From sequence record OM386653.1: a stretch of 64,000 bases of DNA; one strand, given 5' to 3'. Both the position numbers and the translations under genes were made by a program. The notes below the pieces were generated by a model. The model had not been told where the DNA came from, searched no databases, and saw nothing but the letters and a program-made list of their open reading frames with translations. Origin of the DNA: Escherichia phage vB_EcoM_ESCO8. Shown in pieces: positions 30,569 through 44,413 of the stretch (the first letter of the stretch is position 1; every line of letters starts with the position of its first letter).

Positions 30569-30589
30569 AGAATGATTATCATTATTGCA
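30569..30589. promoter_or_regulatory. Fur-box-like site 3 (aagAATGATtATCATTATtgc)
   Basis: Perfect 13-bp palindrome AATGATtATCATT matching the Fur-box core. Confidence 0.4.
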
Positions 30590-30626
30590 TTATGCAGTTT
30601 ATTGCATAAATAATCAGCTATAAATA

Positions 30627-30645
30627 AGAATGATTATCATTTAAG
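30627..30645. promoter_or_regulatory. Fur-box-like site 4 (aagAATGATtATCATTtaa)
   Basis: Same perfect palindrome 45 bp from site 3. Confidence 0.4.
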
Positions 30646-30855
30646 AGGAAAGACAAGAAAAAGGCTGTTTTTTCCCGATAGTTACATTGAGAAATTAAAA
30701 ATAAGCGGTCTAAAACACGCTGTAAGCGCCTTATGATCTTCATGGTATGGTTGTTCATCTGCTCCTTGATTAGCTCGATACCGCGATCTATTCACTTTTT
30801 TCGGTGAACGTTTTTGATAGGTAAAAGCTATCATATTTATTTAGGTAAAAAGAAA

Positions 30856-30872
30856 GGGCGCTTTGTGCGCCC
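30856..30872 (-). terminator. terminator hairpin (gggcgcTTTGTgcgccc) at 3' end of minus-strand array
   Basis: GC hairpin followed by T-rich run on minus strand, just downstream of CDS 30889..31272. Confidence 0.5.
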
Positions 30873-30888
30873 TGGTATGAAATGTTAT

Positions 30889-31272
30889 TTACTGATAAGC
30901 AGGATCGTTTGTTATATCAATCCAATGAGCTAAATTAATTTTATTTTTTGCTTTCATTTTCTCGATCAAACGTTCGGCTAATGTCTCGGAACGAATATAA
31001 ACATAATCGCTAAAATCTTGCCCCGTTTCTTCGTCGATCATTTCCCTGTATTCAACCTTGCCGATAAACGCATGATTCAGCGCATAAGTTTTACCCGTGT
31101 ACCAGTTGTGTAAATGAATCTCGCATTTATAATCGTCGCTATAACCTTCGGTTGTTCTAACTTCAACCAAGTCACCTTTAAACACTGATAAGCACCACAT
31201 AGGATCACGATCTACAGCGCCGTTAAAATCTTTACCGTTTACAGTCGCTGCCAGGTTGATGATATTGCTCAT
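30889..31272 (-). CDS. hypothetical protein (127 aa)
   Basis: ORF track; first gene of PeSL-associated array. Confidence 0.5.
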   Translation of the reverse strand: MSNIINLAATVNGKDFNGAVDRDPMWCLSVFKGDLVEVRTTEGYSDDYKCEIHLHNWYTGKTYALNHAFIGKVEYREMIDEETGQDFSDYVYIRSETLAERLIEKMKAKNKINLAHWIDITNDPAYQ

Positions 31273-31347
31273 GGTGATTCCTCGTTTACCGTTTAAAATT
31301 GTTTGCCCTACACGATAACTATAAATTAACAGAGGCTATAAAGCAAG

Positions 31348-31578
31348 TTATTTTTCATAGAATTTTTCTACTGTGATATTCTTCCCAGTGGGATTAGCTA
31401 CTTTCAAAATTTTATCATGTACTGGACGCCCAAAAGAATAAGATCCGTATACAGTAAACCAATAATCACCGTCAGGCTGTACTATCACCGCTGCATAGGG
31501 TACGCCTTTTTCGTTATTGCTGACATAATAGATCACATTGCCGTTAATAGCCTCAGCGCGTTTAATTTGTTCGATCAT
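31348..31578 (-). CDS. hypothetical protein (76 aa)
   Basis: Track ORF 31348..31656 reads through the upstream stem-loop cassette; internal ATG (MIEQIK) at 31578 preferred. Confidence 0.45.
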   Translation of the reverse strand: MIEQIKRAEAINGNVIYYVSNNEKGVPYAAVIVQPDGDYWFTVYGSYSFGRPVHDKILKVANPTGKNITVEKFYEK

Positions 31579-31597
31579 GATATGATTCCTATATTGA

Positions 31598-31656
31598 GCG
31601 GGAAACCATTTCCCGCCTACGTGATAAATAATAATGTAAGCGTGATCCGGTGTCAA
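31598..31656 (-). promoter_or_regulatory. PeSL-like cassette (TTGACA -35, -10, hairpin GCGGGAAAtggTTTCCCGC)
   Basis: Minus-strand reading: TTGACA, 16 nt, TTATTA, then GC hairpin, then RBS and start of 31348..31578. Confidence 0.55.
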
Positions 31657-31669
31657 TAGATAAAGTTAA

Positions 31670-31906
31670 TTATTTTGCATAATCAATAACAGCGCAGATT
31701 TTATCATTTACATCTTGTAAATCAAAGGCATAGGCGATCTTGCCTTGCAATTTTCCACGGGTGAAACAGATACGATAAACGCCGTTTTTACTATCCTCTT
31801 CTGATTTTAGTATTTTTGCAACCGTTGCAATTAACAGATCATCAGAGTAAGCGATAAAGCCACCACGTAAAATAGGTGATTTTTTGAGGATCATGACTTC
31901 TTTCAT
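31670..31906 (-). CDS. hypothetical protein (78 aa)
   Basis: ORF track. Confidence 0.45.
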   Translation of the reverse strand: MKEVMILKKSPILRGGFIAYSDDLLIATVAKILKSEEDSKNGVYRICFTRGKLQGKIAYAFDLQDVNDKICAVIDYAK

Positions 31907-32334
31907 TTTCTTTTTCCTGTTTTCGTTTTGGGTATGTTCTACCCTCTAAAAACAATATTAAACTGTTGTGATTTATCGGTCAATAGATGAGATTGTAAAG
32001 ATTTGATAGTTTATTCCTTTGATGTTTTGTTGTTTGATAGTTATTAGCTATCAATATATAGCGGGATCTTCCGGTGATTATCTTCCCCTGTCCCCAGGTG
32101 CCGCCCGTTCCATAATAATAATCAAAAGCAGGGTAAAAGGCAAGATAAAAAGCAAATTATTTCCTATGTGCTTTAAACGCTCTAGATAGCTTTATAACGG
32201 CTTTTTCATCCTGGTAAGGTGATTAATCATCACTACCTTGTTTAAGCGGTTATAATCGGTTTTAGGCTGTTTTACGCCACCTTTACGCCTATTCTTTACG
32301 TGTTGTTTCCATCGTGAAAAAAGAATACAAAAAA

Positions 32335-32351
32335 GGGCGCTTAGTGCGCCC
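32335..32351. terminator. bidirectional terminator hairpin (gggcgcTTAGTgcgccc)
   Basis: Flanked by A-run and T-run; downstream of CDS 32369..32758. Confidence 0.5.
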
Positions 32352-32368
32352 CTTTCTTTTACCGTGTA

Positions 32369-32758
32369 TTAATATTCGTTATAATACATCGCTAATTTTT
32401 CATCAAAAGCTGATTGACGATCCGCATACTCCCAGAACATTTCCTGATCCTGTTGTTCGTCATCATCCATCATGTTGAATTGCGCAACCTCCTGGTAAGT
32501 GATCGCTATATTATAACGATAGGTGATCTCTTCTGCGATGTTTTCCGGTAAAGATGATTCTACACTGTCTAACAGCATATCTAACATCATTTCAGCCGCT
32601 TTTTCATCATTATCAAAGCAGTAAGCAGACCATGCCGCATGATGTTTATTTTTCATCTTTGCAATCAAGCCGTTTACTAAAAAAGGCGCTACGTTGTTAA
32701 CGATACCCTGTAAAGATTGGAATTTTTCAACGTTAGAAACAGAAACCAGGTTGCGCAT
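32369..32758 (-). CDS. hypothetical acidic protein (129 aa)
   Basis: ORF track. Confidence 0.5.
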   Translation of the reverse strand: MRNLVSVSNVEKFQSLQGIVNNVAPFLVNGLIAKMKNKHHAAWSAYCFDNDEKAAEMMLDMLLDSVESSLPENIAEEITYRYNIAITYQEVAQFNMMDDDEQQDQEMFWEYADRQSAFDEKLAMYYNEY

Positions 32759-32782
32759 AGTATTTACCTTTTTTGATTACCT

Positions 32783-32842
32783 GGCGGGAAACCATTTCCC
32801 GCCTACGTGGTAAATAATACCATATTGGGGATCGGTGTCAAT
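32783..32842 (-). promoter_or_regulatory. PeSL-like cassette (hairpin GGCGGGAAAtggTTTCCCGCC)
   Basis: TTGACA at 32837-32842 (minus), TATTAT -10, hairpin 32783-32803, then RBS of 32369..32758. Confidence 0.55.
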
Positions 32843-32847
32843 ACTTT

Positions 32848-33234
32848 TTATTCAATATAAATCAAATTATCTTCACCAATGTAAGCATGCACCGATGGCA
32901 TTAATTTAGCTGCATTTGTTAGGCGGTTGGCGGTGTTAGTAGTGTATATTTCAGGGCGATCCCAAAAGCCTACGCCGTGACCGTTACGGGTGAAATGTAA
33001 GTCATTCCCGATCTGGTTTGCTGTTGCGCCGTCGCTCATTGCCTCAGAGATAGCAGCATCATTGGCATCACAATAAGCCGCTACGTCATGAATGATCCGC
33101 TGATGGGCTTGATCTGAAAAATCATAATCGTCTAAGTTATCAATAAAATAGCCTTCATGATCCCTGGCTGATTCAGCAAAAATAAAGGCTTCTTTATAAC
33201 CGTTGATGATTTCAATAATGATTTCAGTTTTCAT
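32848..33234 (-). CDS. hypothetical protein (128 aa)
   Basis: ORF track. Confidence 0.5.
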   Translation of the reverse strand: MKTEIIIEIINGYKEAFIFAESARDHEGYFIDNLDDYDFSDQAHQRIIHDVAAYCDANDAAISEAMSDGATANQIGNDLHFTRNGHGVGFWDRPEIYTTNTANRLTNAAKLMPSVHAYIGEDNLIYIE

Positions 33235-33464
33235 GCTGTACGCTCGACAATAATAATGGTTTGCGGGATCTCGTTTTCTACTACTAACAAGGCTTTTTTC
33301 TGTGTGATAGATATTTTAACACGTTGTAAAGTAGCGGTAAAATCTTTCATTTCATTATGCGCGGATTTAGTGCAATGCCAGATCTCAGGTTTACCTATTT
33401 GCAAGCCGCGTAAAAATTCTGTTTTACCTGTCTTATTCGTGATCATTTGATTCACCTTATCCAA
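33231..33464 (-). CDS. hypothetical protein (77 aa)
   Basis: ORF track. Confidence 0.4.
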   Translation of the reverse strand: MDKVNQMITNKTGKTEFLRGLQIGKPEIWHCTKSAHNEMKDFTATLQRVKISITQKKALLVVENEIPQTIIIVERTA

Positions 33465-33579
33465 TACCGTGGGAAGATAGGATCATGTTAGCCATAGTTG
33501 CAACCAATCCAACCGATAACGCCAGGCCAACTACTACAACCGTGAAAATTTTCTCTAACATGATTCTACCCTCATTAAT

Positions 33580-33641
33580 GGGCGTTGCCTTATTGCCCCG
33601 CCCTATGTCGTACACTTTACCAGATAACAGCATATTGTCAA
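33580..33641 (-). promoter_or_regulatory. PeSL-like cassette (variant hairpin)
   Basis: TTGACA at 33636-33641 (minus) followed by GC-rich dyad gggcg...cgccc. Confidence 0.4.
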
Positions 33642-33642
33642 A

Positions 33643-33837
33643 CTATTTTTTATAAGGGATCAGTAAACTTCTCGCTATTGCTTCACGTAAACCTTTACTT
33701 TTTATTAGATCTATTGTTGCAGGGTGGCAAGTAAAAGCCTTTGACCATTTTTGATCACCTGGTTTACGGGCGAAAATGTAAACTTCTCCGTCGATTTCAT
33801 CCCAACGAGTATTGCTTGTTAGTTTTTTAAGCGCCAT
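33643..33837 (-). CDS. hypothetical protein (about 64 aa)
   Basis: Track ORF 33643..33867 runs into the upstream hairpin; internal ATG (MALKKL) with aaaagagaaa RBS preferred. Confidence 0.4.
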   Translation of the reverse strand: MALKKLTSNTRWDEIDGEVYIFARKPGDQKWSKAFTCHPATIDLIKSKGLREAIARSLLIPYKK

Positions 33838-33858
33838 GCTGATTTCTCTTTTAGTTGT

Positions 33859-33916
33859 GAGCGGCACTATTGCCGCCCTACGAAATACATTCTACCCGAT
33901 TTATAATTGTTGTCAA
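33859..33916 (-). promoter_or_regulatory. PeSL-like cassette (hairpin GCGGCActatTGCCGC)
   Basis: TTGACA 33911-33916 (minus), hairpin 33861-33876. Confidence 0.55.
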
Positions 33917-33917
33917 A

Positions 33918-34187
33918 CTATTTTTTCAAGCTCGACCAGTCAAAACACGGGGCGATCTCGTTAAAACTTGTACCCTGTAAAGCACATAATTTTTTAGCAA
34001 TAGCCGCCGTAACCTGGCGTTGTACGCGAGGATCTGCTACTGATTGGAGAAAGTAGGCGGCTTTATATGTGATCATGCTTTCGCCTGTTTCCTTGTTAAC
34101 GTGGTGCACGGTTTTAGCCTTATCATCTTTTACCAGGGTGTAACCGGATTCGATGGCCTTGATTGCAACGTCCAAAGATATTTTCAT
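33918..34187 (-). CDS. hypothetical protein (89 aa)
   Basis: ORF track; aagagg RBS. Confidence 0.45.
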   Translation of the reverse strand: MKISLDVAIKAIESGYTLVKDDKAKTVHHVNKETGESMITYKAAYFLQSVADPRVQRQVTAAIAKKLCALQGTSFNEIAPCFDWSSLKK

Positions 34188-34206
34188 GATTTACCTCTTT
34201 ATTGAC

Positions 34207-34227
34207 GGCGGGGAATACTCCCCCGCC
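34207..34227 (-). promoter_or_regulatory. stand-alone GC hairpin (GGCGGGGaatactCCCCCGCC) in 5' leader
   Basis: Hairpin between two minus-strand genes with no TTGACA hexamer present. Confidence 0.4.
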
Positions 34228-34234
34228 TTATTAA

Positions 34235-34405
34235 TTACTCTTCATCGTCGCCGTTATAGTATTCAATGCCGTTTTCATCGGTTACAGTAATGTTAACGCC
34301 ACCGATAGCAACACGATCACGGGCAAACGTCATGGCTTCATTTAAATCTTCAGACCAAAAAATATTGTGACCTTTGCGCGATACGTAAAACATAGTTGGG
34401 ATCAT
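34235..34405 (-). CDS. hypothetical protein (about 56 aa)
   Basis: Track ORF 34235..34435 begins inside the hairpin; internal ATG (MIPTMF) preferred. Confidence 0.4.
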   Translation of the reverse strand: MIPTMFYVSRKGHNIFWSEDLNEAMTFARDRVAIGGVNITVTDENGIEYYNGDDEE

Positions 34406-34427
34406 GATTTGTTTCTCTTCTGTTATG

Positions 34428-34485
34428 AGCGGCACTATTGCCGCCCTATGTGATAAACTTTACTACGTTGTTTGCCTAGTGTCAA
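34428..34485 (-). promoter_or_regulatory. PeSL-like cassette (hairpin GCGGCActatTGCCGC)
   Basis: TTGACA 34480-34485 (minus), hairpin 34430-34445. Confidence 0.55.
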
Positions 34486-34486
34486 A

Positions 34487-34771
34487 TTATTTTTTAATGT
34501 TTTGCCCTACAAAATTAATCACTTCCTTAAGCTGTTTCTCAGTCATGATCGTGCCTGGCAATTCTTCTTTGATTTCTTCCGGTAGATAGATATTACCGCG
34601 CCAGGTTAATAAACAACCGTTTTGATCTTCGCAGATAGAATAAGAGAAGATCCACTCATTATCATTCTCAAGCTCCCAAAAGCACAAAAAATCTTCTTTC
34701 CCCAGGTTTTCAACGGTTAAACATAAGCCGCGACGTGCTGCATAGTTGGAAAGTGCTTTTGTGATCTTCAT
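34487..34771 (-). CDS. hypothetical protein (94 aa)
   Basis: ORF track. Confidence 0.45.
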   Translation of the reverse strand: MKITKALSNYAARRGLCLTVENLGKEDFLCFWELENDNEWIFSYSICEDQNGCLLTWRGNIYLPEEIKEELPGTIMTEKQLKEVINFVGQNIKK

Positions 34772-34790
34772 AGCTTATCTCTTCTTTTAA

Positions 34791-34854
34791 GGCGGGGGAA
34801 ACCATTTCCCCGCTCTATGAGATACAATATACTACCCGTTCAGTGTGCTGTCAA
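34791..34854 (-). promoter_or_regulatory. PeSL-like cassette (hairpin GGCGGGGGAAAccaTTTCCCCGC)
   Basis: TTGACA 34849-34854 (minus), hairpin 34791-34813. Confidence 0.55.
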
Positions 34855-35178
34855 TCAATAATCTTCAATATTTTCTACATTGACAAAAGCATGTTTATTT
34901 TCTAAGTTTTCGCCGTACCATTGCCCCATGTTGATTTCTGCGGTGCGCAACCAGGACATGCCGCGTTCTATCTTTTTGCTCGCAATGTCGATCCGGCTTT
35001 TGCATAGTGATTTAGCTTGCAATGTAAAAACACTATTGCCCTGTAATGCTTCCAGGTCATCATGTGCAAGGCGATACTCTTTAAAGCCTGATTCTATCAT
35101 TTCAATCGCATCAAGGAAACGAGCGCGATGATAGAAAAAATCAGAGTTATCCAAATAAACACCGATCACAGATTTCAT
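34855..35178 (-). CDS. hypothetical protein (about 107 aa)
   Basis: Track ORF 34855..35238; internal ATG (MKSVIG) preferred; TTGACA-N17-TAAACT promoter without hairpin upstream. Confidence 0.45.
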   Translation of the reverse strand: MKSVIGVYLDNSDFFYHRARFLDAIEMIESGFKEYRLAHDDLEALQGNSVFTLQAKSLCKSRIDIASKKIERGMSWLRTAEINMGQWYGENLENKHAFVNVENIEDY

Positions 35179-35507
35179 AATTTTACCCTTTTGTTTGCGG
35201 CCTTTGCCGTTTTCAAGATATAGTTTAAAGCATAACAAAAAATTGTCAAGCCTTTAAAGCGTACAACTATAAAACCTATTAAAACACAATGTATAATAAC
35301 ATGGCTATAGTAGCAATACAACATAAAGCCATGCTTGTTTTCCTTCCTTCCTCGTATGCTGGATTTATTACGCTATATTGTACGGGAATAATTTTCATGC
35401 TGTTTCCTTAATGTCTTAAAACGTGGTTTACAATAGAAACAAGCATACAGAAGAAAAAAGATCCTGTCAATAAGATACCGAAAAATAAATGTAAATAGGG
35501 CATGGTT

Positions 35508-35810
35508 TTACTCCTTAAAAAAATCATTGACAATTAAACTGATAACGCCCAGCACCAGATCACCAGGTAGCGCCGCGCTTTCGTTGTTGCTTGTTTGCAC
35601 TTCCTCACTAGTACCAGCATGATAAATCGCATGGTAAGCAATAGTATAATAACCTTTCGTTATTTCTTTAAGATTAATGATTAGCACGTTATTTGTTTCA
35701 TCTTGAAACAATTTAGCGGTGATAGTATTGTTTTCTTTTACACTATCGACTTTTATTGATGGATCATTTACACCAGAAAAAAGAAAAAACGTTTTAGCTA
35801 TGCCGTTCAT
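35508..35810 (-). CDS. hypothetical protein (100 aa)
   Basis: ORF track. Confidence 0.45.
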   Translation of the reverse strand: MNGIAKTFFLFSGVNDPSIKVDSVKENNTITAKLFQDETNNVLIINLKEITKGYYTIAYHAIYHAGTSEEVQTSNNESAALPGDLVLGVISLIVNDFFKE

Positions 35811-35857
35811 GTAGTTCTCCTTTGTTGTGTGTATCTTATAACGTGCTTTCTATGTTG

Positions 35858-36259
35858 TCAATCTTTTATCTCGGTGCATTTTGCTAGGGTATACGTTGCA
35901 AGTGCTGACACTAGTTTTTCATTGCTACGATCTGCGGCTGTACTGTGTACTTTTTGAATACTTTTTAACCACGGCGTAAAATTTTGAGTAGTGAGCACAC
36001 TGGTAATAATTTCACATGGCACATCTTCATTTAAGCCATTAACAATAGATTTATCTATTTTTGCCGTTAGTTGTGTAACAGCACCATAAGCGATCATGTG
36101 TGAATCCTCCATGATTTCATCGGGGATCGCATTATTAATAAGCATGACGTTTTCCATTGCATCAACGGCGCTTAATTCTGCTACTGTGGAGGATATCGCC
36201 GCGCTAGATGTTCCAACCATGCCAAAAGAGATTAAACCAGCGATCAATAATTTTTTCAT
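35858..36259 (-). CDS. putative secreted protein (signal-peptide-like N-terminus)
   Basis: Track ORF 35858..36271; start at MKKLLIAGLISFGMVGTSSAA after gagg RBS. Confidence 0.45.
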   Translation of the reverse strand: MKKLLIAGLISFGMVGTSSAAISSTVAELSAVDAMENVMLINNAIPDEIMEDSHMIAYGAVTQLTAKIDKSIVNGLNEDVPCEIITSVLTTQNFTPWLKSIQKVHSTAADRSNEKLVSALATYTLAKCTEIKD

Positions 36260-36267
36260 TTCTTGCC

Positions 36268-36450
36268 TCATATATGTTTTATTGAGATTATATTGTCACT
36301 ATATACAACGTTTTTCAACGTGTCAATAAAAATCTTATTGCCTTCAATCCCCAGGATCACGCCGCTAGTTATGAAGCCATATTGATCACGATATCTGGCG
36401 CATAACCTTTGCCCCTGGGCTAGTGCCTTGCTTATTTCTTCTAATCTCAT
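36268..36450 (-). CDS. hypothetical protein (60 aa)
   Basis: ORF track. Confidence 0.35.
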   Translation of the reverse strand: MRLEEISKALAQGQRLCARYRDQYGFITSGVILGIEGNKIFIDTLKNVVYSDNIISIKHI

Positions 36451-36540
36451 TTTAAAGCTCCTGTAAAGCCGTCTAACGTTGATTTATAGGCTTGCCCTGG
36501 CGTTACCATTGCCTATGGGTAACAAGCCTCTATATAAGCT

Positions 36541-36566
36541 AAAAGGGCGCTTATTGCGCCCTTTTT
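36541..36566. terminator. bidirectional terminator (aaaagggcgcTTATtgcgcccttttt)
   Basis: Perfect hairpin flanked by A4 and T5. Confidence 0.55.
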
Positions 36567-36567
36567 G

Positions 36568-36705
36568 TTATTCGTTCCAGTATCTTTTTGTGCTGCGATC
36601 TCTTTTTGTTTTGTTCCGCTTATCGCCTTTTTTGGTGATCTCTTCGTTCCAATTTTTACGCGCCTTGCTGCGGTTGAATTTTTCGATCTGCTGTGATGCG
36701 TTCAT
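36568..36705 (-). CDS. small basic protein (45 aa)
   Basis: Not in track; aagagga RBS; Lys/Arg-rich; followed by terminator. Confidence 0.4.
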   Translation of the reverse strand: MNASQQIEKFNRSKARKNWNEEITKKGDKRNKTKRDRSTKRYWNE

Positions 36706-36720
36706 GTTTTTTCCTCTTAA

Positions 36721-37080
36721 TTACGCCACGTTATGCTGTTTTGCCAGGGTTACGATCATGCTTGCAATATATAACCAATAATTTTCCCGCTCACGGGTAA
36801 CGGTTGTTTCTTTACTTGTTTCTTTTATGTACTTCCATTCAATTAACAAGTGATCGATCTCGTTATAATCAAAAGCAATATTGATTTCTGACGGTAAACC
36901 TTGTAACCAGGAGGCTATCGCCTTGATCATGTTATGATTGTAACGTTTTTGATTATCGGGATACCAGTATTCAGATTTAAAACGGCGCATCAGTTCGGTG
37001 ATCTTTTCTTTTTCTGTTGTAGTACCATTAAAAGAAATAGCCGACACAATGTAAGTTTTAATTGCTTTTACTGATTTCAT
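36721..37080 (-). CDS. hypothetical protein (119 aa)
   Basis: ORF track. Confidence 0.5.
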   Translation of the reverse strand: MKSVKAIKTYIVSAISFNGTTTEKEKITELMRRFKSEYWYPDNQKRYNHNMIKAIASWLQGLPSEINIAFDYNEIDHLLIEWKYIKETSKETTVTRERENYWLYIASMIVTLAKQHNVA

Positions 37081-37100
37081 AATCTTATCTCTTTATTGAT

Positions 37101-37159
37101 GGCGGGAAACCATTTCCCGCCGTTGTTGTTACTTTACTTATAAATCATGCTACTGTCAA
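37101..37159 (-). promoter_or_regulatory. PeSL-like cassette (hairpin GGCGGGAAAccaTTTCCCGCC)
   Basis: TTGACA 37154-37159 (minus), hairpin 37101-37121. Confidence 0.55.
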
Positions 37160-37166
37160 GCGGATA

Positions 37167-37337
37167 TTATTTATTTTTTAACGTTAATGTTCCCAGCTTA
37201 TCAGCGTGACGCAGACCAGGGAAGATCCATTTTCCTGATTCATCTTTTACCGGGGCTTTAAGCGTAGCGCCCAAGTTGGCGGCATTAACTTTACGTGCAA
37301 CGTTGCGAGCGGCTTCACGGGTGGCGAAAGTGATCAT
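37167..37337 (-). CDS. small protein (56 aa)
   Basis: Not in track; sits between two cassettes. Confidence 0.4.
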   Translation of the reverse strand: MITFATREAARNVARKVNAANLGATLKAPVKDESGKWIFPGLRHADKLGTLTLKNK

Positions 37338-37408
37338 GGTGTTTTCCTCTTCTCTTTGTTAGGCGGTTGGCTATTCCACCGCCTTGATGAATACAGTTTA
37401 CTCTATTT

Positions 37409-37567
37409 TTATTTCTTTGCAACTACTTTTATATTTTCTTTCTTTGCCTCTTCCACCTGATCCGCCCACTGCTTACCCCACGTTTGAGCGTTATAGTGAT
37501 ATTGACAAAGAGCAACGCCACGTTTTAAACCAGAGATAGACTTTTTACCACATTGGCAAGTTTTCAT
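37409..37567 (-). CDS. small zinc-binding protein (52 aa, CQCGKK...CQYH)
   Basis: Not in track; aaggga RBS. Confidence 0.4.
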   Translation of the reverse strand: MKTCQCGKKSISGLKRGVALCQYHYNAQTWGKQWADQVEEAKKENIKVVAKK

Positions 37568-37578
37568 TTTGTGATCCC

Positions 37579-37794
37579 TTAGTTGATAATTGTCAAAGTA
37601 AAATCATAATCTTTTGACAGTTTATATTGCACCTTGTTACCGTATATGTCACCTTTACGTAAAGATCCACGGATACCGATAACATCCTTCACGTCTTTTA
37701 AATTTTTCACGCCTGTAATGTCTTTGTTGAAATACTCGTCATCTGAAAATAAAACTTGACTTGCATTTTTTAACAGTGTGCGGATATTAGCCAT
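37579..37794 (-). CDS. hypothetical protein (about 71 aa)
   Basis: Track ORF 37579..37842 reads into hairpin; internal ATG (MANIRT) preferred. Confidence 0.4.
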   Translation of the reverse strand: MANIRTLLKNASQVLFSDDEYFNKDITGVKNLKDVKDVIGIRGSLRKGDIYGNKVQYKLSKDYDFTLTIIN

Positions 37795-37815
37795 TTTGAT
37801 AATCTCTCTTACTAT

Positions 37816-37874
37816 GAGCGGCACTATTGCCGCCCTATGCATTACATTTTACTGATTTTAGTTATCTTGTCAAG
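37816..37874 (-). promoter_or_regulatory. PeSL-like cassette (hairpin GCGGCActatTGCCGC)
   Basis: TTGACA 37869-37874 (minus), hairpin 37818-37833. Confidence 0.55.
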
Positions 37875-37881
37875 ATTATTT

Positions 37882-38109
37882 TTAGTTTAATCCATCCAGG
37901 CACAACAAGCGATCAACATTCAGATCGGTTAGGCTAATCGTTGGCACCTGGTAGGATTCGATGTACTCAACGCTCGACCATTGCCCGAAGTTAGCGACCG
38001 CCCAGCTATTCAAGGAAGAGTGAAGATCATCCCCTTTCTTCTCGGTGATAACTGCTACTACCTGGGAGCTTCCAACCGTACCGGATACGCGAACAATAAC
38101 GATAGCCAT
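37882..38109 (-). CDS. hypothetical protein (75 aa)
   Basis: ORF track. Confidence 0.4.
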   Translation of the reverse strand: MAIVIVRVSGTVGSSQVVAVITEKKGDDLHSSLNSWAVANFGQWSSVEYIESYQVPTISLTDLNVDRLLCLDGLN

Positions 38110-38131
38110 AATGATAACCTTTCTTTGATTT

Positions 38132-38191
38132 GGCGGGAAACCATTTCCCGCCCTATGTGATATATCTTACACTAATTTAAAACGTTGTCAA
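38132..38191 (-). promoter_or_regulatory. PeSL-like cassette (hairpin GGCGGGAAAccaTTTCCCGCC)
   Basis: TTGACA 38186-38191 (minus), 16 nt, TAAGAT, hairpin 38132-38152. Confidence 0.55.
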
Positions 38192-38286
38192 ATTATTTTC
38201 TATTTCTTCCGTAATAGCCTAATTTATGATCTAAGCTAAAACGTTTTGTGAGATAGGTCGAACGATGTTTCATTTTTATATCTCCT

Positions 38287-38526
38287 TTACATTCCAACCA
38301 TCGCGGCGCGGATTGCAGTTTTACTGAACTTGTAACCGTCTGGCGTTTTATCTTGATCCATACTTTCAAGAAATAACATCATATCACGCGCTGCGTCATT
38401 CTTATTGGTGTTAGCTGCGATAAATTCACGCGCAAGATTATAAAAACCTTCATCATTGTTGATCCAAAGGCTTACATTCCAATGAGTTTTGTTTTTGTGA
38501 CCTAAGAACATTTTTGATTTAGCCAT
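38287..38526 (-). CDS. hypothetical protein (79 aa)
   Basis: ORF track. Confidence 0.45.
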   Translation of the reverse strand: MAKSKMFLGHKNKTHWNVSLWINNDEGFYNLAREFIAANTNKNDAARDMMLFLESMDQDKTPDGYKFSKTAIRAAMVGM

Positions 38527-38548
38527 GATGTTAATCTCTTTTTCAGTG

Positions 38549-38609
38549 AGGCGGGAACTATTCCCGCTCTCTATGTAATACAGTTTACTCTTTTTATTCG
38601 TGCTGTCAA
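38549..38609 (-). promoter_or_regulatory. PeSL-like cassette (hairpin GCGGGAActaTTCCCGC)
   Basis: TTGACA 38604-38609 (minus), hairpin 38549-38572. Confidence 0.5.
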
Positions 38610-38614
38610 TGCTT

Positions 38615-38980
38615 TTATAAATCTTTTTTACGTTTTACATCGCTTGCATGACTGTATACAGTGATCCCATTGTCACGGCAAAAACGGGAAAGGTAGGCAT
38701 AATTTGAAAACTCTTTACCTTCCAGGTTGATAACCTTGCTAAATTCTTCCATTGCTACAGTGTCAAAGTGATCCCCGTATCCATATTGGAACGGCACGTT
38801 TACTACTTCGATCAGTTTACCGCCGATCTCAACGTCAACCATCAAAGAGAAATAAGTATTACCATAAGACTTTTGAAACCAGCGACGGGCGCTAATATGT
38901 ACCGCTTCAATGCTGGATAGTTCAATTTTAGCAGTGTTAGCCAGGGTAGCATAAGCAGAAACATTGATATTTTTAGCCAT
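38615..38980 (-). CDS. hypothetical protein (121 aa)
   Basis: ORF track. Confidence 0.5.
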   Translation of the reverse strand: MAKNINVSAYATLANTAKIELSSIEAVHISARRWFQKSYGNTYFSLMVDVEIGGKLIEVVNVPFQYGYGDHFDTVAMEEFSKVINLEGKEFSNYAYLSRFCRDNGITVYSHASDVKRKKDL

Positions 38981-39075
38981 AGTCTTTAATCTCTTTTGAT
39001 TAGTTAGGAGTATTCCCGATAAAAGTTATTATGCTTGTACTATCGTTCGTTGTCAATAGCACAAGACTAAAACTT

Positions 39076-39255
39076 TTAACGATAATCATCATAGGCTTTA
39101 TTGACCTGGCGAATATAGCATTCAAAAGCTAGATCAATAGATTTATATTCACGGATATAATCACCATAGGAAACCACATACATTTCTATAGCTTCCTCAT
39201 ATGCCAAGATGATAGAATCTAAACCTACGATCTCAGTCTTTGCAATAATAGCCAT
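39076..39255 (-). CDS. small acidic protein (59 aa)
   Basis: Not in track; between cassettes. Confidence 0.4.
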   Translation of the reverse strand: MAIIAKTEIVGLDSIILAYEEAIEMYVVSYGDYIREYKSIDLAFECYIRQVNKAYDDYR

Positions 39256-39401
39256 GCTTTTATTCCTTAGTAATGTTTCAATCTATATAAGCATTATAGC
39301 TTACTGATTTCAGGTGTCAAGTGATTTTTTATTTCACCTTATGGGGCGTTGCCCCGCTTTATGTGGTACATATTACGGGGCTTGTTTGCATATGTCAAGC
39401 C

Positions 39402-39947
39402 TTACACAATACAATTTTCATAATTTTTTAGGGCTTGTCTTTTTTCCTCTTCTGTCGGCATGTATGGCTGGATCTCTTCCTCTTCCAGGGTAGGCATGAT
39501 TTCTTCCTCTTCCTCCTGGTCTTCCTCTTGCGCTACGGCAACAAGTTTATTGATCTTCTCCTGGGCTTTAATCAATTTTGCATCTAGCACCATTTTAGCG
39601 GTGTTGTATACCGTCCATGCCATGCGTTTTTCTTCGTATGCTTTATCTAGTGCGGCTAATTTAGCGGGATACTCTTCTAACACCTTAAAAGCCGGATCAA
39701 TGCTATATAAGGGATTATTTTTAGCGTCATCGCTTGGATCTGCGGCGCTTGCAATGTCAGCGTTACCATTTGCCAGCCAACCAGGGCGAACGGATCGCGT
39801 CTTTGTGTGCCCGTTGCTCTTTGCCGCTCGATTCCCTATCTGCTCCCCGCTGTACCCTTCCATGTGATCGATCATGTCATCTGGTATTATGCGCGGATCA
39901 TTAGCGTCATGCTTTACCCATGACTGGATCACATATTCACGCCCCAT
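39402..39947 (-). CDS. hypothetical protein with acidic Glu-rich C-terminal region (181 aa)
   Basis: ORF track. Confidence 0.5.
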   Translation of the reverse strand: MGREYVIQSWVKHDANDPRIIPDDMIDHMEGYSGEQIGNRAAKSNGHTKTRSVRPGWLANGNADIASAADPSDDAKNNPLYSIDPAFKVLEEYPAKLAALDKAYEEKRMAWTVYNTAKMVLDAKLIKAQEKINKLVAVAQEEDQEEEEEIMPTLEEEEIQPYMPTEEEKRQALKNYENCIV

Positions 39948-40209
39948 GTTCGTTCGCCTCTTCTGTTAGTAGTTTACACACCTTAAACATGCTTGCCGCG
40001 TCTTTTGACGGTAGCCAGCCTATGCGATACACTCCAGGATCTGGATTCGTTATATCTGTTAATTGAGCGTTACGATGATTAAAGATAGTGTAACCGCCAC
40101 CAGCACGGGGATAAACATTATCTTTAAACCTGATAGCGTATCTCGCCAGGTTGAACGTTGTAGCATGTTCAAAAGCGATCACATTATCAAAAACTTTTAG
40201 AAAAAACAA
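39937..40209 (-). CDS. hypothetical protein (90 aa)
   Basis: ORF track. Confidence 0.4.
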   Translation of the reverse strand: MFFLKVFDNVIAFEHATTFNLARYAIRFKDNVYPRAGGGYTIFNHRNAQLTDITNPDPGVYRIGWLPSKDAASMFKVCKLLTEEANEHGA

Positions 40210-40211
40210 GA

Positions 40212-40358
40212 TTATCCTCCCCAGCGTTTAAAGCCCGTTGCACGGTTATTTTTTAACTCTCGTTTTAGTCTCTTGCAACGGTTTACAAGTGCAAACCGTG
40301 CCGGAGTTGTAACAGTAGCGCCGTTTTTGGTGTGAATACTCATTACATATTGTTTCAT
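40212..40358 (-). CDS. small basic protein (48 aa)
   Basis: Not in track; downstream of hairpin 40376-40396. Confidence 0.35.
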   Translation of the reverse strand: MKQYVMSIHTKNGATVTTPARFALVNRCKRLKRELKNNRATGFKRWGG

Positions 40359-40436
40359 AAAGTTTTATCCTATGTAAGCGGGAATAGTTCCCGCTTTAAG
40401 ATAGCTTATCAGGTTTTAGTGCAATGTTAACCGTTT

Positions 40437-40799
40437 TTATTCGTAAATTTTACCGCTTTCTACCCATACCATAACACGGCGCATGTTATCCCATGCATCT
40501 TGTCGCAGATTTAAGGCATGCAATTCTTCGGTTGTGCTCATACCTGGTACGGGCTTGCTATATGTTACAAAGAGATCGCCAGCATATTCATAAGCCAGGG
40601 TAAGATCACATTGAATCATCTTTTTAAGCATAGCATTAAGCATCATATTAGCGGCATGTTGATCACGTTTTAGCGGTAGCGTTGCGATCTGTGAGCGATA
40701 GCTTTCGATCCGTGCATCCACTGCATCACGTGGAAGATTTTTCACGTCGTCGCGGAAAGATACCAGGTTTAACATGATAGTATTGATTTGCTTGCTCAT
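40437..40799 (-). CDS. hypothetical protein (120 aa)
   Basis: ORF track. Confidence 0.5.
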   Translation of the reverse strand: MSKQINTIMLNLVSFRDDVKNLPRDAVDARIESYRSQIATLPLKRDQHAANMMLNAMLKKMIQCDLTLAYEYAGDLFVTYSKPVPGMSTTEELHALNLRQDAWDNMRRVMVWVESGKIYE

Positions 40800-40821
40800 T
40801 GCATTACCCTTTCTTTGATTT

Positions 40822-40882
40822 GGCGGGAAACCATTTCCCCGCCTTATGTGGTATATATTACAAAATTATTTTTAAGTGTCAA
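40822..40882 (-). promoter_or_regulatory. PeSL-like cassette (hairpin GGCGGGAAAccaTTTCCCCGCC)
   Basis: TTGACA 40877-40882 (minus), hairpin 40822-40843. Confidence 0.55.
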
Positions 40883-40885
40883 GCC

Positions 40886-41158
40886 TTAAAGCAAAAACGC
40901 TACATCTTGCGCTTTTAGTGTAGTGTCGATCATTTTCGGGCTTTTATAATCCACAAAGCGCGCGGTTTTTTCAATAACGAAGCCGAGATAATCTTGTTTA
41001 TTGAAATTACATTCTTTTTTAAATGTTTCCCGTGCCACGGTGATCGCTGCATCCAGGGATAAACGCCCATCAATATTGATGTTAGCGAAAGATCCGCCAC
41101 CGCGCATAGGTTTACCAGTGATGCCAGCTACGATCATTGATGCGCTATATGATGCCAT
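40886..41158 (-). CDS. hypothetical protein (90 aa)
   Basis: ORF track. Confidence 0.45.
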   Translation of the reverse strand: MASYSASMIVAGITGKPMRGGGSFANINIDGRLSLDAAITVARETFKKECNFNKQDYLGFVIEKTARFVDYKSPKMIDTTLKAQDVAFLL

Positions 41159-41180
41159 GATTATTTCTCTCTTCTGTTAT

Positions 41181-41238
41181 GAGCGGCACTATTGCCGCCC
41201 TATGTGATACATCTTATCAGATTAAAAAACGTTGTCAA
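41181..41238 (-). promoter_or_regulatory. PeSL-like cassette (hairpin GCGGCActatTGCCGC)
   Basis: TTGACA 41233-41238 (minus), 16 nt, TAAGAT, hairpin 41183-41198, then RBS and ATG of 40886..41158. Confidence 0.55.
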
Positions 41239-41609
41239 GAATATTTTTAAAAGATAATAACCGCTACTACAATCCAAAATGGAACGGCTAGAATGATAGC
41301 GTTAATCGTTCCAACCGTCAAGCTGTTTTCTTTCTTGATCATCGTTATCAACCTTTTATAAGTAATGTTATTGTGACGGTGGATTGTGGAGATCCTCACC
41401 TTTGCCCGTCCTGCATTGCGCCCTCCTTTTGTTTATTGTCGTTGTGCCTCGCCCCCCTCGACAAGATGAATAATACGCTACCAGGTGAGGAACGTCAACC
41501 CCTTTTTTAATCTTTTTTCATTTCTTTTTTGCTTGCTATCTATAAAGGAAAGGGGCTATTATCTTTCTACCGCGCCAACCAGGGCGCACATCAAAGAAAG
41601 GGCGATACC

Positions 41610-41876
41610 ATGACAAATACTACTTTACACCTCATGCACTCATTAGGCTGGCAAGGCGGCACGGTGCACCAGGTAGCAAGCGCAACGGGCTTAAAGGTTG
41701 AAACCGTTCTCAACCTGGGCGATCATAAGGTGGAAGAAATAGATCATTTTGATACGTTCGCAAATGGTTATCTATGGGCTTGCAGTGGCGGCGGGGAAAG
41801 CAAGATCCCGCCAGGGGCGCGGGGCGACATGTATTTTTGGCTAGGTGTCCTATCCTGGCAAGAAAACAAAAAATAA
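41610..41876 (+). CDS. hypothetical protein (about 88 aa), GC-rich
   Basis: Track ORF 41529..41876; internal ATG (MTNTTLHL) after aaagaaagggcg preferred; higher GC than surrounding phage DNA. Confidence 0.35.
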   Translation: MTNTTLHLMHSLGWQGGTVHQVASATGLKVETVLNLGDHKVEEIDHFDTFANGYLWACSGGGESKIPPGARGDMYFWLGVLSWQENKK

Positions 41877-41878
41877 TC

Positions 41879-41907
41879 TTGACAAGCCCAGGGATCGGGC
41901 TTATACT
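41879..41907 (+). promoter_or_regulatory. strong sigma70-like promoter (TTGACA-N17-TATACT)
   Basis: Perfect -35 and near-consensus -10; no ORF for about 800 bp downstream. Confidence 0.4.
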
Positions 41908-42138
41908 GTTTTACATACAGAAGAGGAAGCGCCACCCCCACGGCGTAAAGGCGGGGCTAACATACCAGGGCACTACTGGTTGGAAGGTTGATCGCCGGTA
42001 GCTCGTCTAAAATAAATTTGTAAAGAAATGTAAAGATAAAAATAATCGCTTGCTTTTGTTGTTGGTTATGCTATTCTTATTGTATGGCGAGGGGACACGG
42101 GAGCGCGAGACAAACACCGCCCCTGCGCGTTATTCTCT

Positions 42139-42252
42139 AAATGAGAAAATTCTCATTTGCTAATGATTCTCATTCTCTTACTGAGAATGATTATCACTTA
42201 CATACTTAAATGATAATGATTCTCATTTACAAATGAAAATGATTATCATACG
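42139..42252. promoter_or_regulatory. cluster of five Fur-box-like palindromic sites
   Basis: aatgagaaAAttctcatt (8+8 palindrome), AATGAttcTCATT, gAATGATtATCAc, GATAATGATtctCATTtac, AATGATtATCATa within 114 bp. Confidence 0.4.
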
Positions 42253-42269
42253 CACACCCATAAAAACAC

Positions 42270-42478
42270 GAAATTGAACTTTTCATTTTTGATTTTTCTA
42301 CGGAAAAAGGCAAAAAACTTTAAATAAACTGGGGAATTTTTAAAAAATTGAAGTTTTCATTTTCAAAATCTGGATAGAAATACGTACAAAAACTTTAAAT
42401 AATTTTGACCAAACTTGAACTTTTCATTTTCAAAATTTGTACCCAAAAATCTGTAAAAACTTTAAATAATTTTGTCCT
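42270..42478. repeat. three tandem ~66-74 bp direct repeats (ttgaaSttttcattttcaaaat ... aaaactttaaataa)
   Basis: Units begin near 42274, 42348, 42414; each has a TTGAA..TTCAA dyad and a TTTAAATA box. Confidence 0.55.
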
Positions 42479-42688
42479 TTTTATAAAAATGATTTTACTG
42501 TTCTGTTATAAGTAGTAGTTAAGAGATAGTATGCCTTTTAAAGATCAGATACCATAGTCAAACAAACAAATTAAATACTTTATTAACAGAGTACAGAATA
42601 ATATTTACTCTGGATATATTATTCAGAGGGTGGATTTCCGTACATGAAACCCACACCCCTTTTTATAAAAATAAAAATTTTCAAAATA

Positions 42689-43240
42689 TCAGGAAATATC
42701 AGATTGTGCTTTTAGATAAACAGCAAGGTCTGTATGCCATTTTCCTAAAAGATTTTGTCCTTTCCAACAGTCCTTATTTTCCACATCACGATCCCACATT
42801 CCCATTTTGATACCATAAATAGAATCATAAGGGCTTGCCTCTACGAACTCCTTATCTGCGTAAGCGATAAGTTTATTTTTGAGATCTTCATTTTGTGTGT
42901 ATTTAAGATACAAACCACGCTTGACAATCTTCTCCCGTAAAGAAGTCCAAGTAGCTTCATCGTAATCTTTAACTAATCTACCTAGTCGCTTATAATATGC
43001 CTGTTCTTTTTCTCCTGTATATCTTAGATCTCCGGTTAAAATAGAAGATGCAATGTTGTAATCATAAAACAAACATGCTTTTCTCCACATCATATATTGT
43101 TCCACACAAGTAAATTCAACAGAACTTGTAATAGAATTATTATACTTGGGAGCTAAAGGTTCAATAAAAGATGATAGATACCAGTTGCTAAATTCATCTT
43201 TTGCCGAGAAGAAGAACACATACTTATCAGTAATCCGCAT
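42689..43240 (-). CDS. NADAR-domain (YbiA-like) protein
   Basis: 183 aa; FFFSAKDEFSNWY, CVEQYMMWRKA, GQNLLGKWHTDLAVYL fit the NADAR pattern (F.F....SN..., ..EQ..QA.KA, G.NLLG). Confidence 0.65.
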   Translation of the reverse strand: MRITDKYVFFFSAKDEFSNWYLSSFIEPLAPKYNNSITSSVEFTCVEQYMMWRKACLFYDYNIASSILTGDLRYTGEKEQAYYKRLGRLVKDYDEATWTSLREKIVKRGLYLKYTQNEDLKNKLIAYADKEFVEASPYDSIYGIKMGMWDRDVENKDCWKGQNLLGKWHTDLAVYLKAQSDIS

Positions 43241-44413
43241 TTACATCTCCTTACTGTATACTAATTTGCCACCATATTGTGTAATAATTTTTTGAAGATT
43301 TTCCAAATCAGAAACACTTACTGTTTCTGTATAACCATCTTTCAACTCTCTTGCCGTTAAAATACCAGTTTTTAATTTTTTCTTTATAGCTCTTTCAGCA
43401 GCCCTACATTGTTTCACTGTGCTAAAATCATATAAACAAATACGCCCCATAAAAAACAGATTACGGCTCTTTTGACCGTTTAATCGTCTATCGCTATCTT
43501 TAGATATACCAAACTTAAGAGCAACTATAATATCATTATCTTTAACAATATTAATATATAATTGCTGTTGATTATGACCAGCACACTGTGGACAACCTTG
43601 ACCGAGGCTTAATAAATTACGAGCACTCCCTATCTGCTCACCATGCACAAGACAAAGATATTTAAACTTACCTATAGAAGAGGGTTTGGTAATCCAATCT
43701 ACCCAGACATACCCTTTCCCTTCTACTTCCTTTTTTACCCTATAGGTGATCTGGTCTTCTGTATACTGATAGTTCCCACAACGACACGGAATATACCCTT
43801 GTTTAAGGTTATGTCCTGCAGAGTAAAATTTACCATCACAAACACCTGCTTGAACATATTCATCATGGGAGCAAACAGGACACTCAACCATCCATACTGC
43901 ATCACGCTTGTTACGTTTCCCTGTATTGGTGAAGATAGTGCCTTCCTTAAATTCCCCTGTAGAAAAGAAATCTGCAATATGTTGATCGTCGGACATTGTT
44001 TGTCTCTCCCTCTTACATTGTGGACAACCGCTACCACGTTTAAAATTGTTAATACTTGTAGTATCCCATTTATTACCACAATGACACAACAAATCAAGTT
44101 TTGTTTTATTCCCTTTCCATTCTCCCACGTACCCTAACACCTGATACCCCCTCTTCTGTGCTATCTCTTCCAAGATCGGCAATTCTGTTTCCCATGTTAA
44201 CGGCTTCTTACCAGAACAGATAGGACAACCACGTCCCTTCTTAAAATCATTAATGTTCGTGGTGTTCCACTCTCCATGTTTAGGACAAGATAGCTTAAGT
44301 TTAGTCTTGTTCCCTTTCCATTCACCAACATAACCCAGGATTTGAATATTGCGATTTTTAGCAAGGGGTGTTAATTCTTCTTTATATTGTTCCCATGATT
44401 TTGGTGCTGTCAT
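43241..44413 (-). CDS. zinc-ribbon-repeat protein with C-terminal GIY-YIG/T5orf172-like domain (putative nuclease)
   Basis: 390 aa; two tandem ~45 aa repeats (LGYVGEWKGNKTKL.L.C...G.W.TT.IN.FK.G.GCP.C), further GCPQC motif, C-terminal LYINIV...ALKFGISKDSDRRL resembling the T5orf172 KxGxT...RR core. Confidence 0.4.
   Translation of the reverse strand: MTAPKSWEQYKEELTPLAKNRNIQILGYVGEWKGNKTKLKLSCPKHGEWNTTNINDFKKGRGCPICSGKKPLTWETELPILEEIAQKRGYQVLGYVGEWKGNKTKLDLLCHCGNKWDTTSINNFKRGSGCPQCKRERQTMSDDQHIADFFSTGEFKEGTIFTNTGKRNKRDAVWMVECPVCSHDEYVQAGVCDGKFYSAGHNLKQGYIPCRCGNYQYTEDQITYRVKKEVEGKGYVWVDWITKPSSIGKFKYLCLVHGEQIGSARNLLSLGQGCPQCAGHNQQQLYINIVKDNDIIVALKFGISKDSDRRLNGQKSRNLFFMGRICLYDFSTVKQCRAAERAIKKKLKTGILTARELKDGYTETVSVSDLENLQKIITQYGGKLVYSKEM

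Follow-up and report, generated by a model that had tools for sequence, protein, structure and literature searches.

Conserved arrays of Fur-box-like palindromes at the borders of the left-terminal early region in phi92-like phages

The Fur operators of Escherichia coli, such as those at fepA-fes, fepB-entC and fepD-entS, are built from a 19-bp inverted repeat of 9-1-9 or 7-1-7 form, and within E. coli Fur clusters neighboring sites overlap tightly, offset by 3 or 6 bp (Chen et al. 2007, PMC2189734). About 83% of these clusters overlap promoters (PMC2189734). Fur boxes on phage DNA were previously known only as single operators in front of temperate-phage cargo genes, as in temperate lambdoid coliphages, where sitABCD is preceded by a Fur box (PMC6969025). 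In the open-access literature on Fur with T5, rV5-like or lytic phages, and on decoys or titration, only this sitABCD Fur box was found, and an older description is possible. A phage palindrome array is found in the injection stop signal (iss) region of T5 (Repeat Region 3, palE-palJ and DRC/DRD), which is large and noncoding, follows a rightward early unit and is located about 8% of the genome in from the left end. Function of the iss has been demonstrated experimentally only for T5 and BF23. The open-access literature neither assigns a protein to the T5 palindromes nor calls them Fur boxes, and one T5 text proposes DnaA and A1 restriction activity. Finally, in the PeSL cassettes of T4-type phages, small genes are spaced by a repeated promoter and GC stem-loop (PMC2839356, PMC4122927).

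Here we compare these systems with a noncoding locus of Escherichia phage vB_EcoM_ESCO8 (OM386653.1), a phi92-like virulent myovirus of the genus Justusliebigvirus, subfamily Stephanstirmvirinae. The window, meaning the whole stretch of DNA analyzed, is 64,000 nucleotides long, and all positions are numbered from its first base. Between positions 41500 and 43300 the window is 99.9% identical to Escherichia phage outra and 97 to 98% identical to phi92, inny and about 50 others. The palindrome array of interest lies inside an 810-bp noncoding gap in a region of about 31% GC content. To the left of the gap is a small plus-strand gene, a gp224 homologue (41610-41876), for which a Pfam search of the gp224-like protein returned no domain and PHROGs returned only matches of unknown function. 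To the right is a convergent minus-strand operon encoding a NADAR protein, a CapR-repeat endonuclease and an ATPase. Two genes of the operon that converges on the array occupy 43241-44413 and 42689-43240, both on the minus strand; one product, annotated as an endonuclease in phi92, carries three CapR-homology repeats and a weak T5orf172-like domain, and its partner gene encodes a NADAR-domain protein. Searches for tRNAs and Rfam families in the window and in 41850-42700 gave no meaningful match, and GC skew was uninformative as to a replication origin.

An earlier note on this DNA had described five Fur-box-like palindromes in positions 42139-42252. All five are present, of which only four have the canonical 9-1-9 form, the center of the fifth being one base short. 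The exception is box 1 (42140-42157; AATGAGAAAATTCTCATT), which had been called a perfect 8+8 palindrome; its arms are 8 nt long, but they flank a 2-nt center, such that box 1 is an 8-2-8 palindrome that misses the 9-1-9 register by one base, rather than a perfect continuous one. In phi92 and one IMG/VR relative, box 1 is a full 9-1-9 palindrome (AATGAGAAAAATTCTCATT), and it is 8-2-8 here because the A-run is one base shorter than that of phi92. The length of this central A-run (42145-42149; phi92 6641-6659) is polymorphic among phi92-like phages: phi92 and one IMG/VR genome have the 9-1-9 form, and the window, outra, inny and a second IMG/VR genome have the 8-2-8 form. Some isolates may therefore have a weaker first box.

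The remaining four boxes each have at most 2 mismatches to the 7-1-7 Fur motif TGATAATNATTATCA and match the 9-1-9 consensus at 14 to 17 of 18 positions. Box 2 (42156-42174; TTTGCTAATGATTCTCATT) is of the Fur-type 9-1-9 form with 14/18 matches and a score of 20.5 bits, and box 3 (42180-42198; ACTGAGAATGATTATCACT) has 15/18 matches, one mismatch to the 7-1-7 motif and 23.4 bits. Box 4 (42209-42227; AATGATAATGATTCTCATT) matches at 17/18 with 31.7 bits, and box 5 (42232-42250; AATGAAAATGATTATCATA) matches at 16/18 with 23.8 bits. The palindromes originally picked out at these places correspond to 42162-42174 (AATGATTCTCATT), 42184-42196 (GAATGATTATCAC), 42211-42229 (GATAATGATTCTCATTTAC) and 42238-42250 (AATGATTATCATA). 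As had been noticed, GATAATGATTCTCATTTAC is nearly identical to a site in a second, left-hand cluster, with 18 of 19 positions shared with 29718-29736. The description of the five sites as overlapping did not hold, as they are discrete and spaced, with centers about 15, 24, 29 and 23 bp apart.

Sites of this kind are far more frequent in the window than expected. The motif TGATAATNATTATCA, allowing 2 mismatches, is matched 9 times versus 0.9 expected, and none of 100 shuffled sequences reached 9. The 19-mer GATAATGATAATCATTATC, allowing 3 mismatches, is matched 4 times versus 0.12 expected, and the 9-1-9 consensus AATGATAATNATTATCATT is matched at 15/18 or better 6 times versus 0.14 expected. 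All of the latter matches fall within two noncoding gaps, the gap that holds the array and another at 29219-30888. A phage-derived log-odds PWM finds 8 sites of at least 20 bits in the window versus 0.035 in simulated sequence. Moreover, no site of such strength occurs in the remainder of the genome of outra, the closest full genome, such that strong sites are confined to 2.2 kb of noncoding DNA in a 145-kb genome. We conclude that the palindromes are nonrandom in both number and location.

The existence of the second cluster was borne out: in addition to the right array there is a set of four boxes at 29521-30641. The left boxes are located at 29521-29539 (AATGAGAATTATTATCATT; 17/18; 29.9 bits), 29716-29734 (GCTGATAATGATTCTCATT; 15/18; 23.9 bits), 30565-30583 (GTTAAGAATGATTATCATT; 20.0 bits) and 30623-30641 (AATAAGAATGATTATCATT; 16/18; 27.8 bits). 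Their position relative to the genome end can be transferred from relatives, as published PhageTerm analyses report a direct terminal repeat (DTR) of 342 bp in BME3 and of 317 bp in Klebsiella phage FKP3. The BME3 record carries the same 342-bp segment at its start and end, which maps to window 29469-29810 (+), and the FKP3 record starts at the point homologous to window 29469, with the equivalents of the two leftmost boxes at +40 and +210. Homology to these two relatives thus suggests that the physical genome end lies at about 29469 and that the 1.6-kb noncoding gap 29219-30888 probably represents the terminus of the genome. Since the terminus of the relatives is at about 29469, the two leftmost boxes fall inside the equivalent of the short terminal repeat, at about +53 and +248 from the end. 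The BME3 DTR annotation is placed about 73 bp further left than the terminal duplication of the record itself (window 29396-29810), and the boxes at 29521 and 29716 are inside the DTR under either placement. The BME3 GenBank record also holds additional duplicated segments near its end. By the same homology, the right array is about 12.7 kb from the end, or 8.6% of a genome of about 146 kb. The earlier note had left out that the left cluster lies in and beside the terminal repeat.

Between the two clusters are short genes that are oriented toward the genome end and have a repeated promoter and stem-loop cassette as spacers. The spacers form repeat families D1 to D4 on the minus strand, in which TTGACA-17-TAAGAT is followed by GGCGGCAATAGTGCCGC or GGCGGGAAATGGTTTCCCGCC. 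Throughout 30800-41600, where the genes are on the minus strand, the spacers combine a TTGACA-17-TAAGAT-like promoter with a GC stem-loop of the CATAGGGCGG type. The two clusters had been said to bracket a PeSL array, and they do flank this block of small early genes with PeSL-like spacers; PeSL array is a fair label, because the short end-facing genes carry the repeated promoter and stem-loop cassette between them. The likeness to the T4-type cassettes is limited in that the Fur-like boxes here lie outside the cassettes and the phage is not T4-type. The leftward array is closed by a terminator at 30855-30873, and the boxes at 30565 and 30623 lie just past it, 1.1 kb in from the end, the former about 270 bp past the terminator of the last early-array gene.

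The identity of the motif was assessed with the PWM, the training set of which consisted solely of rV5-like phage boxes that were picked by their position after the conserved module described below, together with their periodic followers. The left-cluster and T5 boxes, which were excluded from training, score 20 to 32 bits. When the 40 kb of E. coli K-12 DNA that surrounds the enterobactin cluster was scanned, the best six matches, at 11.3 to 18.5 bits, fell in the fepB/entC, fepD/entS and fepA/fes intergenic regions, and the seventh reached 8.6 bits. These regions are the three Fur-regulated bidirectional promoters of the scanned ent-fep stretch. Thus, the description of the palindromes as Fur-box-like was correct, as they match the consensus far above chance and a matrix built from phage sites retrieves genuine Fur operators of E. 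coli. Like the operators of E. coli, the phage boxes are 19-bp inverted repeats of 9-1-9 or 7-1-7 form that cluster over about 100 bp. Weaker secondary matches are present at +6 bp beside the boxes at 29521, 29716, 42156, 42180 and 42232. Unlike those of E. coli, the main phage boxes are separate (23 to 29 bp apart), have no clear promoter of a protein-coding gene beneath them, prefer G/C at positions 6 and 14 and reside in the noncoding DNA of a virulent phage. Likewise, the boxes resemble the sitABCD type in being a host Fur site on phage DNA, but there a single operator serves the promoter of iron-related cargo, whereas here, in virulent phages, there are multi-site arrays to which no iron gene is attached.

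The phage half-sites vary independently at positions 6 and 14 (G/T/A/C) and ATGA...TCAT is invariant, which fits half-site recognition by a dimeric protein rather than an RNA or DNA hairpin. RNA hairpins were considered and are disfavored, as the half-sites are often noncomplementary at 6/14 and the loop would be only 1 to 3 nt. The phage consensus prefers G/C at these positions (GAGAAT...ATTCTC), where the textbook Fur box has T/A. With the Zur box, the phage boxes have only the outer AAATG/CATTT in common. A tblastn search of a phi92-like genome with an approximate E. coli Fur query sequence detected no Fur homologue. The earlier note had left open whether the binder is host Fur or a phage factor, and had suggested that one dimeric protein binds at both borders. 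The latter is the natural reading of two clusters with one motif, and for the former the evidence presented here and below favors host Fur.

The 250 bp to the left of the right array is a conserved noncoding module, about 75 to 85% identical between genera, and the array is the tail of this larger module, a fact that had been missed earlier. The order of elements is P1, a probable structured RNA (RNA1), a CpxR-like box, P2, a GC hairpin, Fur boxes and direct repeats. P1 (41879-41907, +) is a sigma-70 promoter close to consensus, TTGACA-17-TATACT, whose spacer contains a GC hairpin, and it is kept in 11 genus-level relatives. RNA1 (41914-42015, +) is a GC-rich noncoding element with about 84% identity across genera of Stephanstirmvirinae and Vequintavirinae. 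Within it are an invariant hairpin of 4 bp and a longer helix, the latter with one clean AU<->GC compensatory pair that splits the sequences 5 to 5. No Rfam family matched RNA1, and conservation and covariation suggest that it is a probable structured RNA. RNA1, driven by P1 (41879-42015 for the two, +), is a candidate new phage noncoding RNA.

Downstream of RNA1 is a CpxR-consensus-like direct repeat, GTAAAGAAATGTAAA (42020-42034, +), which is the only copy in the window and occupies the same place just upstream of P2 in 11 related loci. The CpxR consensus is GTAAA(N)4-8GTAAA (cited in PMC9603713), and the box may provide an envelope-stress input to phage early transcription. In phi92- and phAPEC8-like phages there is an insertion of about 10 bp between the CpxR-like box and the -35 element, which would keep the helical phase. 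A near-identical 15-mer is found in early noncoding DNA of T5-like phages (T5 5080-5094, Spc35 4774 and Pectobacterium phage DU_PP_V 6844). P2 (42050-42077, +) is a promoter-like pair, TTGCTT-16-TATTCT, with TTGATC or TTGCAA and TATTAT or TATATT in relatives. It is followed by a GC-rich hairpin element (42086-42137, +) with an invariant CAA(A/T)CACC core that ends in ATTCT directly before box 1. The helix flanking the core differs in shape between genera. The element could be a small RNA of about 55 nt with a weak terminator or a DNA element recognized by a protein. An 18-codon open reading frame at 42084-42140 was rejected, and there is no conserved small open reading frame in the element, because a 1-nt indel between genera shifts the frame.

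The array follows the module in all related genera examined, including Justusliebigvirus, Phapecoctavirus, Seunavirus, Mydovirus, Certrevirus and Henunavirus; the relatives were phi92, inny, phAPEC8, FKP3, PVP-SE1, NINP13076, GAP31, KB57, Mydo, CR3, phiTE, pEa_SNUABM_56 and UPEC06. In every one of them the first Fur-like box begins two or three bases after ATTCT, and box 1 is the positional homologue of this invariant first box following ...ATTCTnn. Across 11 genus-level relatives the first box can be aligned and hardly varies, and the DNA past it is unalignable. One to four more boxes usually follow in 29-bp steps (24, 29 and 23 bp here), and box number (1 to 5) and spacing turn over across relatives. 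In IMG/VR, a box was present at +139 to +150 from the RNA1 anchor in 13 of the 13 module-bearing loci with enough downstream sequence, and a site of at least 14 bits was present in the 520 nt downstream of none of 63 chance anchor matches. The motif is unchanged in phage genera that infect Escherichia, Salmonella, Klebsiella, Cronobacter, Pectobacterium, Erwinia and Proteus. Pseudomonas phage VCM (Otagovirus), a myovirus, also keeps the ...GGGCGTCATTCTGGTAATGCGAATG junction, and the module therefore predates the enterobacterial rV5-like group. At 2440-2545 of VCM, the junction ...GGGCGTCATTCTGGTAATGCGAATGCTTCTCAAC is accompanied by a second Fur-like box.

To the right of the boxes are three direct repeats of about 67 bp (42270-42477, +), which carry a repeat_region annotation in phages inny, alia and muut. 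The window repeats have the form TTGAAC/GTTTTCATTTTCAAAAT...AAAAACTTTAAATAA, and in other genera this place is taken by three or four repeats of unrelated sequence (for example, ...TCGATCGAGAACC). No strong sigma-70 promoter overlaps the array, the best candidates having 9/12 matches at most, and boxes 4 and 5 contain weak divergent promoter-like hexamer pairs of that quality, TTCTCA-18-TATCAT (+) and TTTTCA-18-TATCAT (-). A third promoter, GAGACA-18-TATTCT, that would place box 1 at +1 was rejected, as the last base of its putative -10 varies (T/C/A) between genera. A minus-strand promoter covered by Fur, TTGAAT-18-CAGAAT, is plausible in about six Vequintavirinae and was rejected for this phage, being absent here and not conserved; its A2 is lost in phiTE, pEa56 and KB57. 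In Seunavirus and Mydovirus the boxes are followed by a promoter that has no conserved counterpart in phi92-like phages. Downstream of the array there is no protein-coding gene in the right orientation. The absence of such a gene, and the presence of only weak hexamers in boxes 4 and 5, argue against a classical operator.

The same kind of array is present in T5. In the T5 genome (AY543070), Fur-like sites at 231-249, 6098-6116 and 9552-9720 score as top-grade Fur boxes, the first including a perfect 7-1-7 element, TGATAATCATTATCA, at +233 in the 3' part of dmp. The site at +231 is identical in Spc35, and the box at 6098 adjoins DnaA boxes. The array at 9552-9720 is located in the annotated injection stop signal, by the 7.9% nick and before the DRD repeats (GTGCAAATCCGAC), and so matches the right array of the window in being a Fur-like palindrome array followed by direct repeats. 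The rV5-derived PWM detects arrays of 25 to 32 bits in T5, Spc35, DU_PP_V, Gostya9 and Vibrio valsw3, and a two-box query retrieved 653 phage records, mostly T5-like and rV5-like. T5 further resembles the phi92-like module in having a CpxR-like GTAAAGAAAYGTAAA box in early noncoding DNA, and T5-like phages carry GTAAAGAA(A/G)(C/T)GTAAA there. When 18 T5 left-end proteins, including A1 and A2, were compared with a phi92-like genome by tblastn, nothing was found below E=0.01. That T5-like phages have the same arrays yet no detectable common early protein favors a host factor, and the same motif in two unrelated families that infect many Gammaproteobacteria and have no phage protein in common, identical to a host operator type of conserved specificity in those hosts, argues for host Fur. 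Taken together, sequence comparisons make it quite probable that Fur binds the boxes, a premise common to several of the functional readings considered below.

We favor, with moderate confidence, a reading in which the boxes are a host-Fur operator array and bound Fur creates an iron-dependent block where the early domain ends. The array would be the 3' end of the conserved module and would mark the inner border of the left-terminal early region. Iron-loaded host Fur dimers would occupy the four or five right boxes and the four boxes in or beside the terminal repeat, and the Fur-DNA blocks would form immediately past the 3' ends of two divergent early transcription units. One unit would be the leftward small-gene array, ending at the terminator at 30855-30873, and the other would be the rightward gp224/P1/P2 unit, ending at the hairpin at 42086-42129. 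Bound Fur-Fe would prevent transcription by host RNA polymerase from leaving the early domain and would silence weak promoters embedded in or just past the array. The sequence beyond, comprising the repeats and the antisense of the convergent operon, would become dependent on host iron status. Each of the two inner clusters comes immediately after a terminator-like hairpin that closes an early unit, and the T5 array likewise follows a terminator; from this position we infer that an iron-dependent Fur-DNA barrier or switch is the most likely function. The barrier or iron-switch function, deduced from position alone, is speculative. The main alternatives are titration of Fur and a T5-like entry checkpoint, with a phage-encoded binder as a minor one, and these are not mutually exclusive.

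If Fur binds, the purpose of the boxes could instead be titration, an alternative we consider unlikely. The ten high-affinity sites per packaged genome, multiplied by replication, would act as a decoy that drains Fur from host operators, and the resulting derepression of iron uptake and RyhB would supply the iron-dependent ribonucleotide reductases of the phage, which does encode RNR subunits. Consistent with titration, the phage sites match the consensus at 15 to 17 of 18 positions versus 15/18 for the best site in the ent cluster, they lack an obvious regulated gene, and two of them are duplicated in the terminal repeat. Moreover, multicopy Fur boxes are known to relieve repression of the regulon in the Fur titration assay (PMC2189734), in which, as here, many high-affinity boxes reside on replicating DNA, although the assay, read out from fhuF::lacZ, is an artificial plasmid system rather than a phage genome. 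One entering genome, however, offers too few sites, and titration would come only late, when host transcription may be off. T5, with the same arrays, degrades host DNA within minutes, and titration leaves unexplained why the arrays are fixed in position by the conserved module and at the borders of the early region.

A DNA-entry checkpoint like the T5 injection stop signal is a quite unlikely alternative. The array and repeats would mark the end of a first-entering segment of about 12.7 kb, where a protein-DNA complex, containing Fur or a different host factor, would pause or gate the delivery, or else the activation, of the remaining genome. With the end placed by homology, a noncoding block of palindromes and direct repeats lies about 12.7 kb or about 8% from the end, as in the T5 injection stop region. 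The layouts are also alike: T5 has a box at +231, leftward pre-early genes, a rightward unit with a terminator, the array and direct repeats, an order also seen in Spc35 and DU_PP_V, and here there are boxes at about +53 and +248, a leftward array, a rightward unit with a hairpin, the array at 8.6% and repeats. Extended to both groups, the idea is that Fur-box arrays are the cis-acting core of a stepwise delivery or activation checkpoint common to T5-like siphoviruses and rV5/phi92-like myoviruses, with host Fur as the sought T5 iss factor, and to this too we give only a small probability. Two-step transfer has never been reported for rV5/phi92-like phages, and it is hard to see how a cytoplasmic protein could halt DNA that is still outside the cell. 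DnaA boxes, a 10-kb terminal repeat, the A1/A2 genes and a fixed nick are features of T5, none of which was found in the phi92-like phage: there are no A1/A2 homologues, there is no TTATCCACA cluster near either Fur cluster, and the DTR of relatives is 317 to 342 bp, or about 0.3 kb, versus about 10 kb in T5. Were the checkpoint real, phi92-like phages would have an early "first-step" segment of about 12.7 kb bounded by Fur-DNA complexes, and the transition would be tuned by iron status.

That the sites are merely Fur-box-like and bind a dimeric DNA-binding protein of the phage, such as an early repressor or an origin or packaging factor, is improbable. In its favor, GAGAAT-N-ATTCTC is systematically unlike GATAAT-N-ATTATC, many of the small early proteins are uncharacterized, with gp224 lacking a Pfam match, and the region is origin-like in that promoters read into AT-rich direct repeats. 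Of the features of an iteron origin, the AT-rich 67-bp repeats and inward promoters are present, and DnaA boxes and a recognizable adjacent initiator are absent. A phage protein and its site would be expected to co-diverge, but the motif is constant over very divergent phages and two unrelated families that have no early proteins in common by tblastn, and it picks out true Fur operators in E. coli. Lastly, that the boxes are functionless AT-rich palindromes or simple repeats, as might arise in DNA of about 31% GC, has a negligible probability, as the counts are 10- to 200-fold over shuffled or simulated sequence and conservation of the box position across genera already contradicts it.

We conclude that the boxes are best explained as a host-Fur operator array, with an iron-dependent block at the early-domain borders as its likeliest role. 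Elements of this kind are known, and what appears new is their form and placement: virulent phages carry multi-site arrays both in the terminal repeat and where the early region ends internally, a feature shared with the T5 injection-stop region. Such strong arrays are conserved at noncoding borders in large virulent enterobacterial phages of two unrelated families. The CpxR-like box next to the array suggests envelope stress as a further input of the module. If Fur binds, the "bewildering" palindromes of the T5 iss, unexplained for decades, would gain a concrete candidate protein, and these phages would sense or manipulate the iron status of the host as soon as their first DNA is inside the cell. 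The iron supply in the gut or in the course of infection could then alter the performance of rV5/phi92-like and T5-like therapeutic phages.
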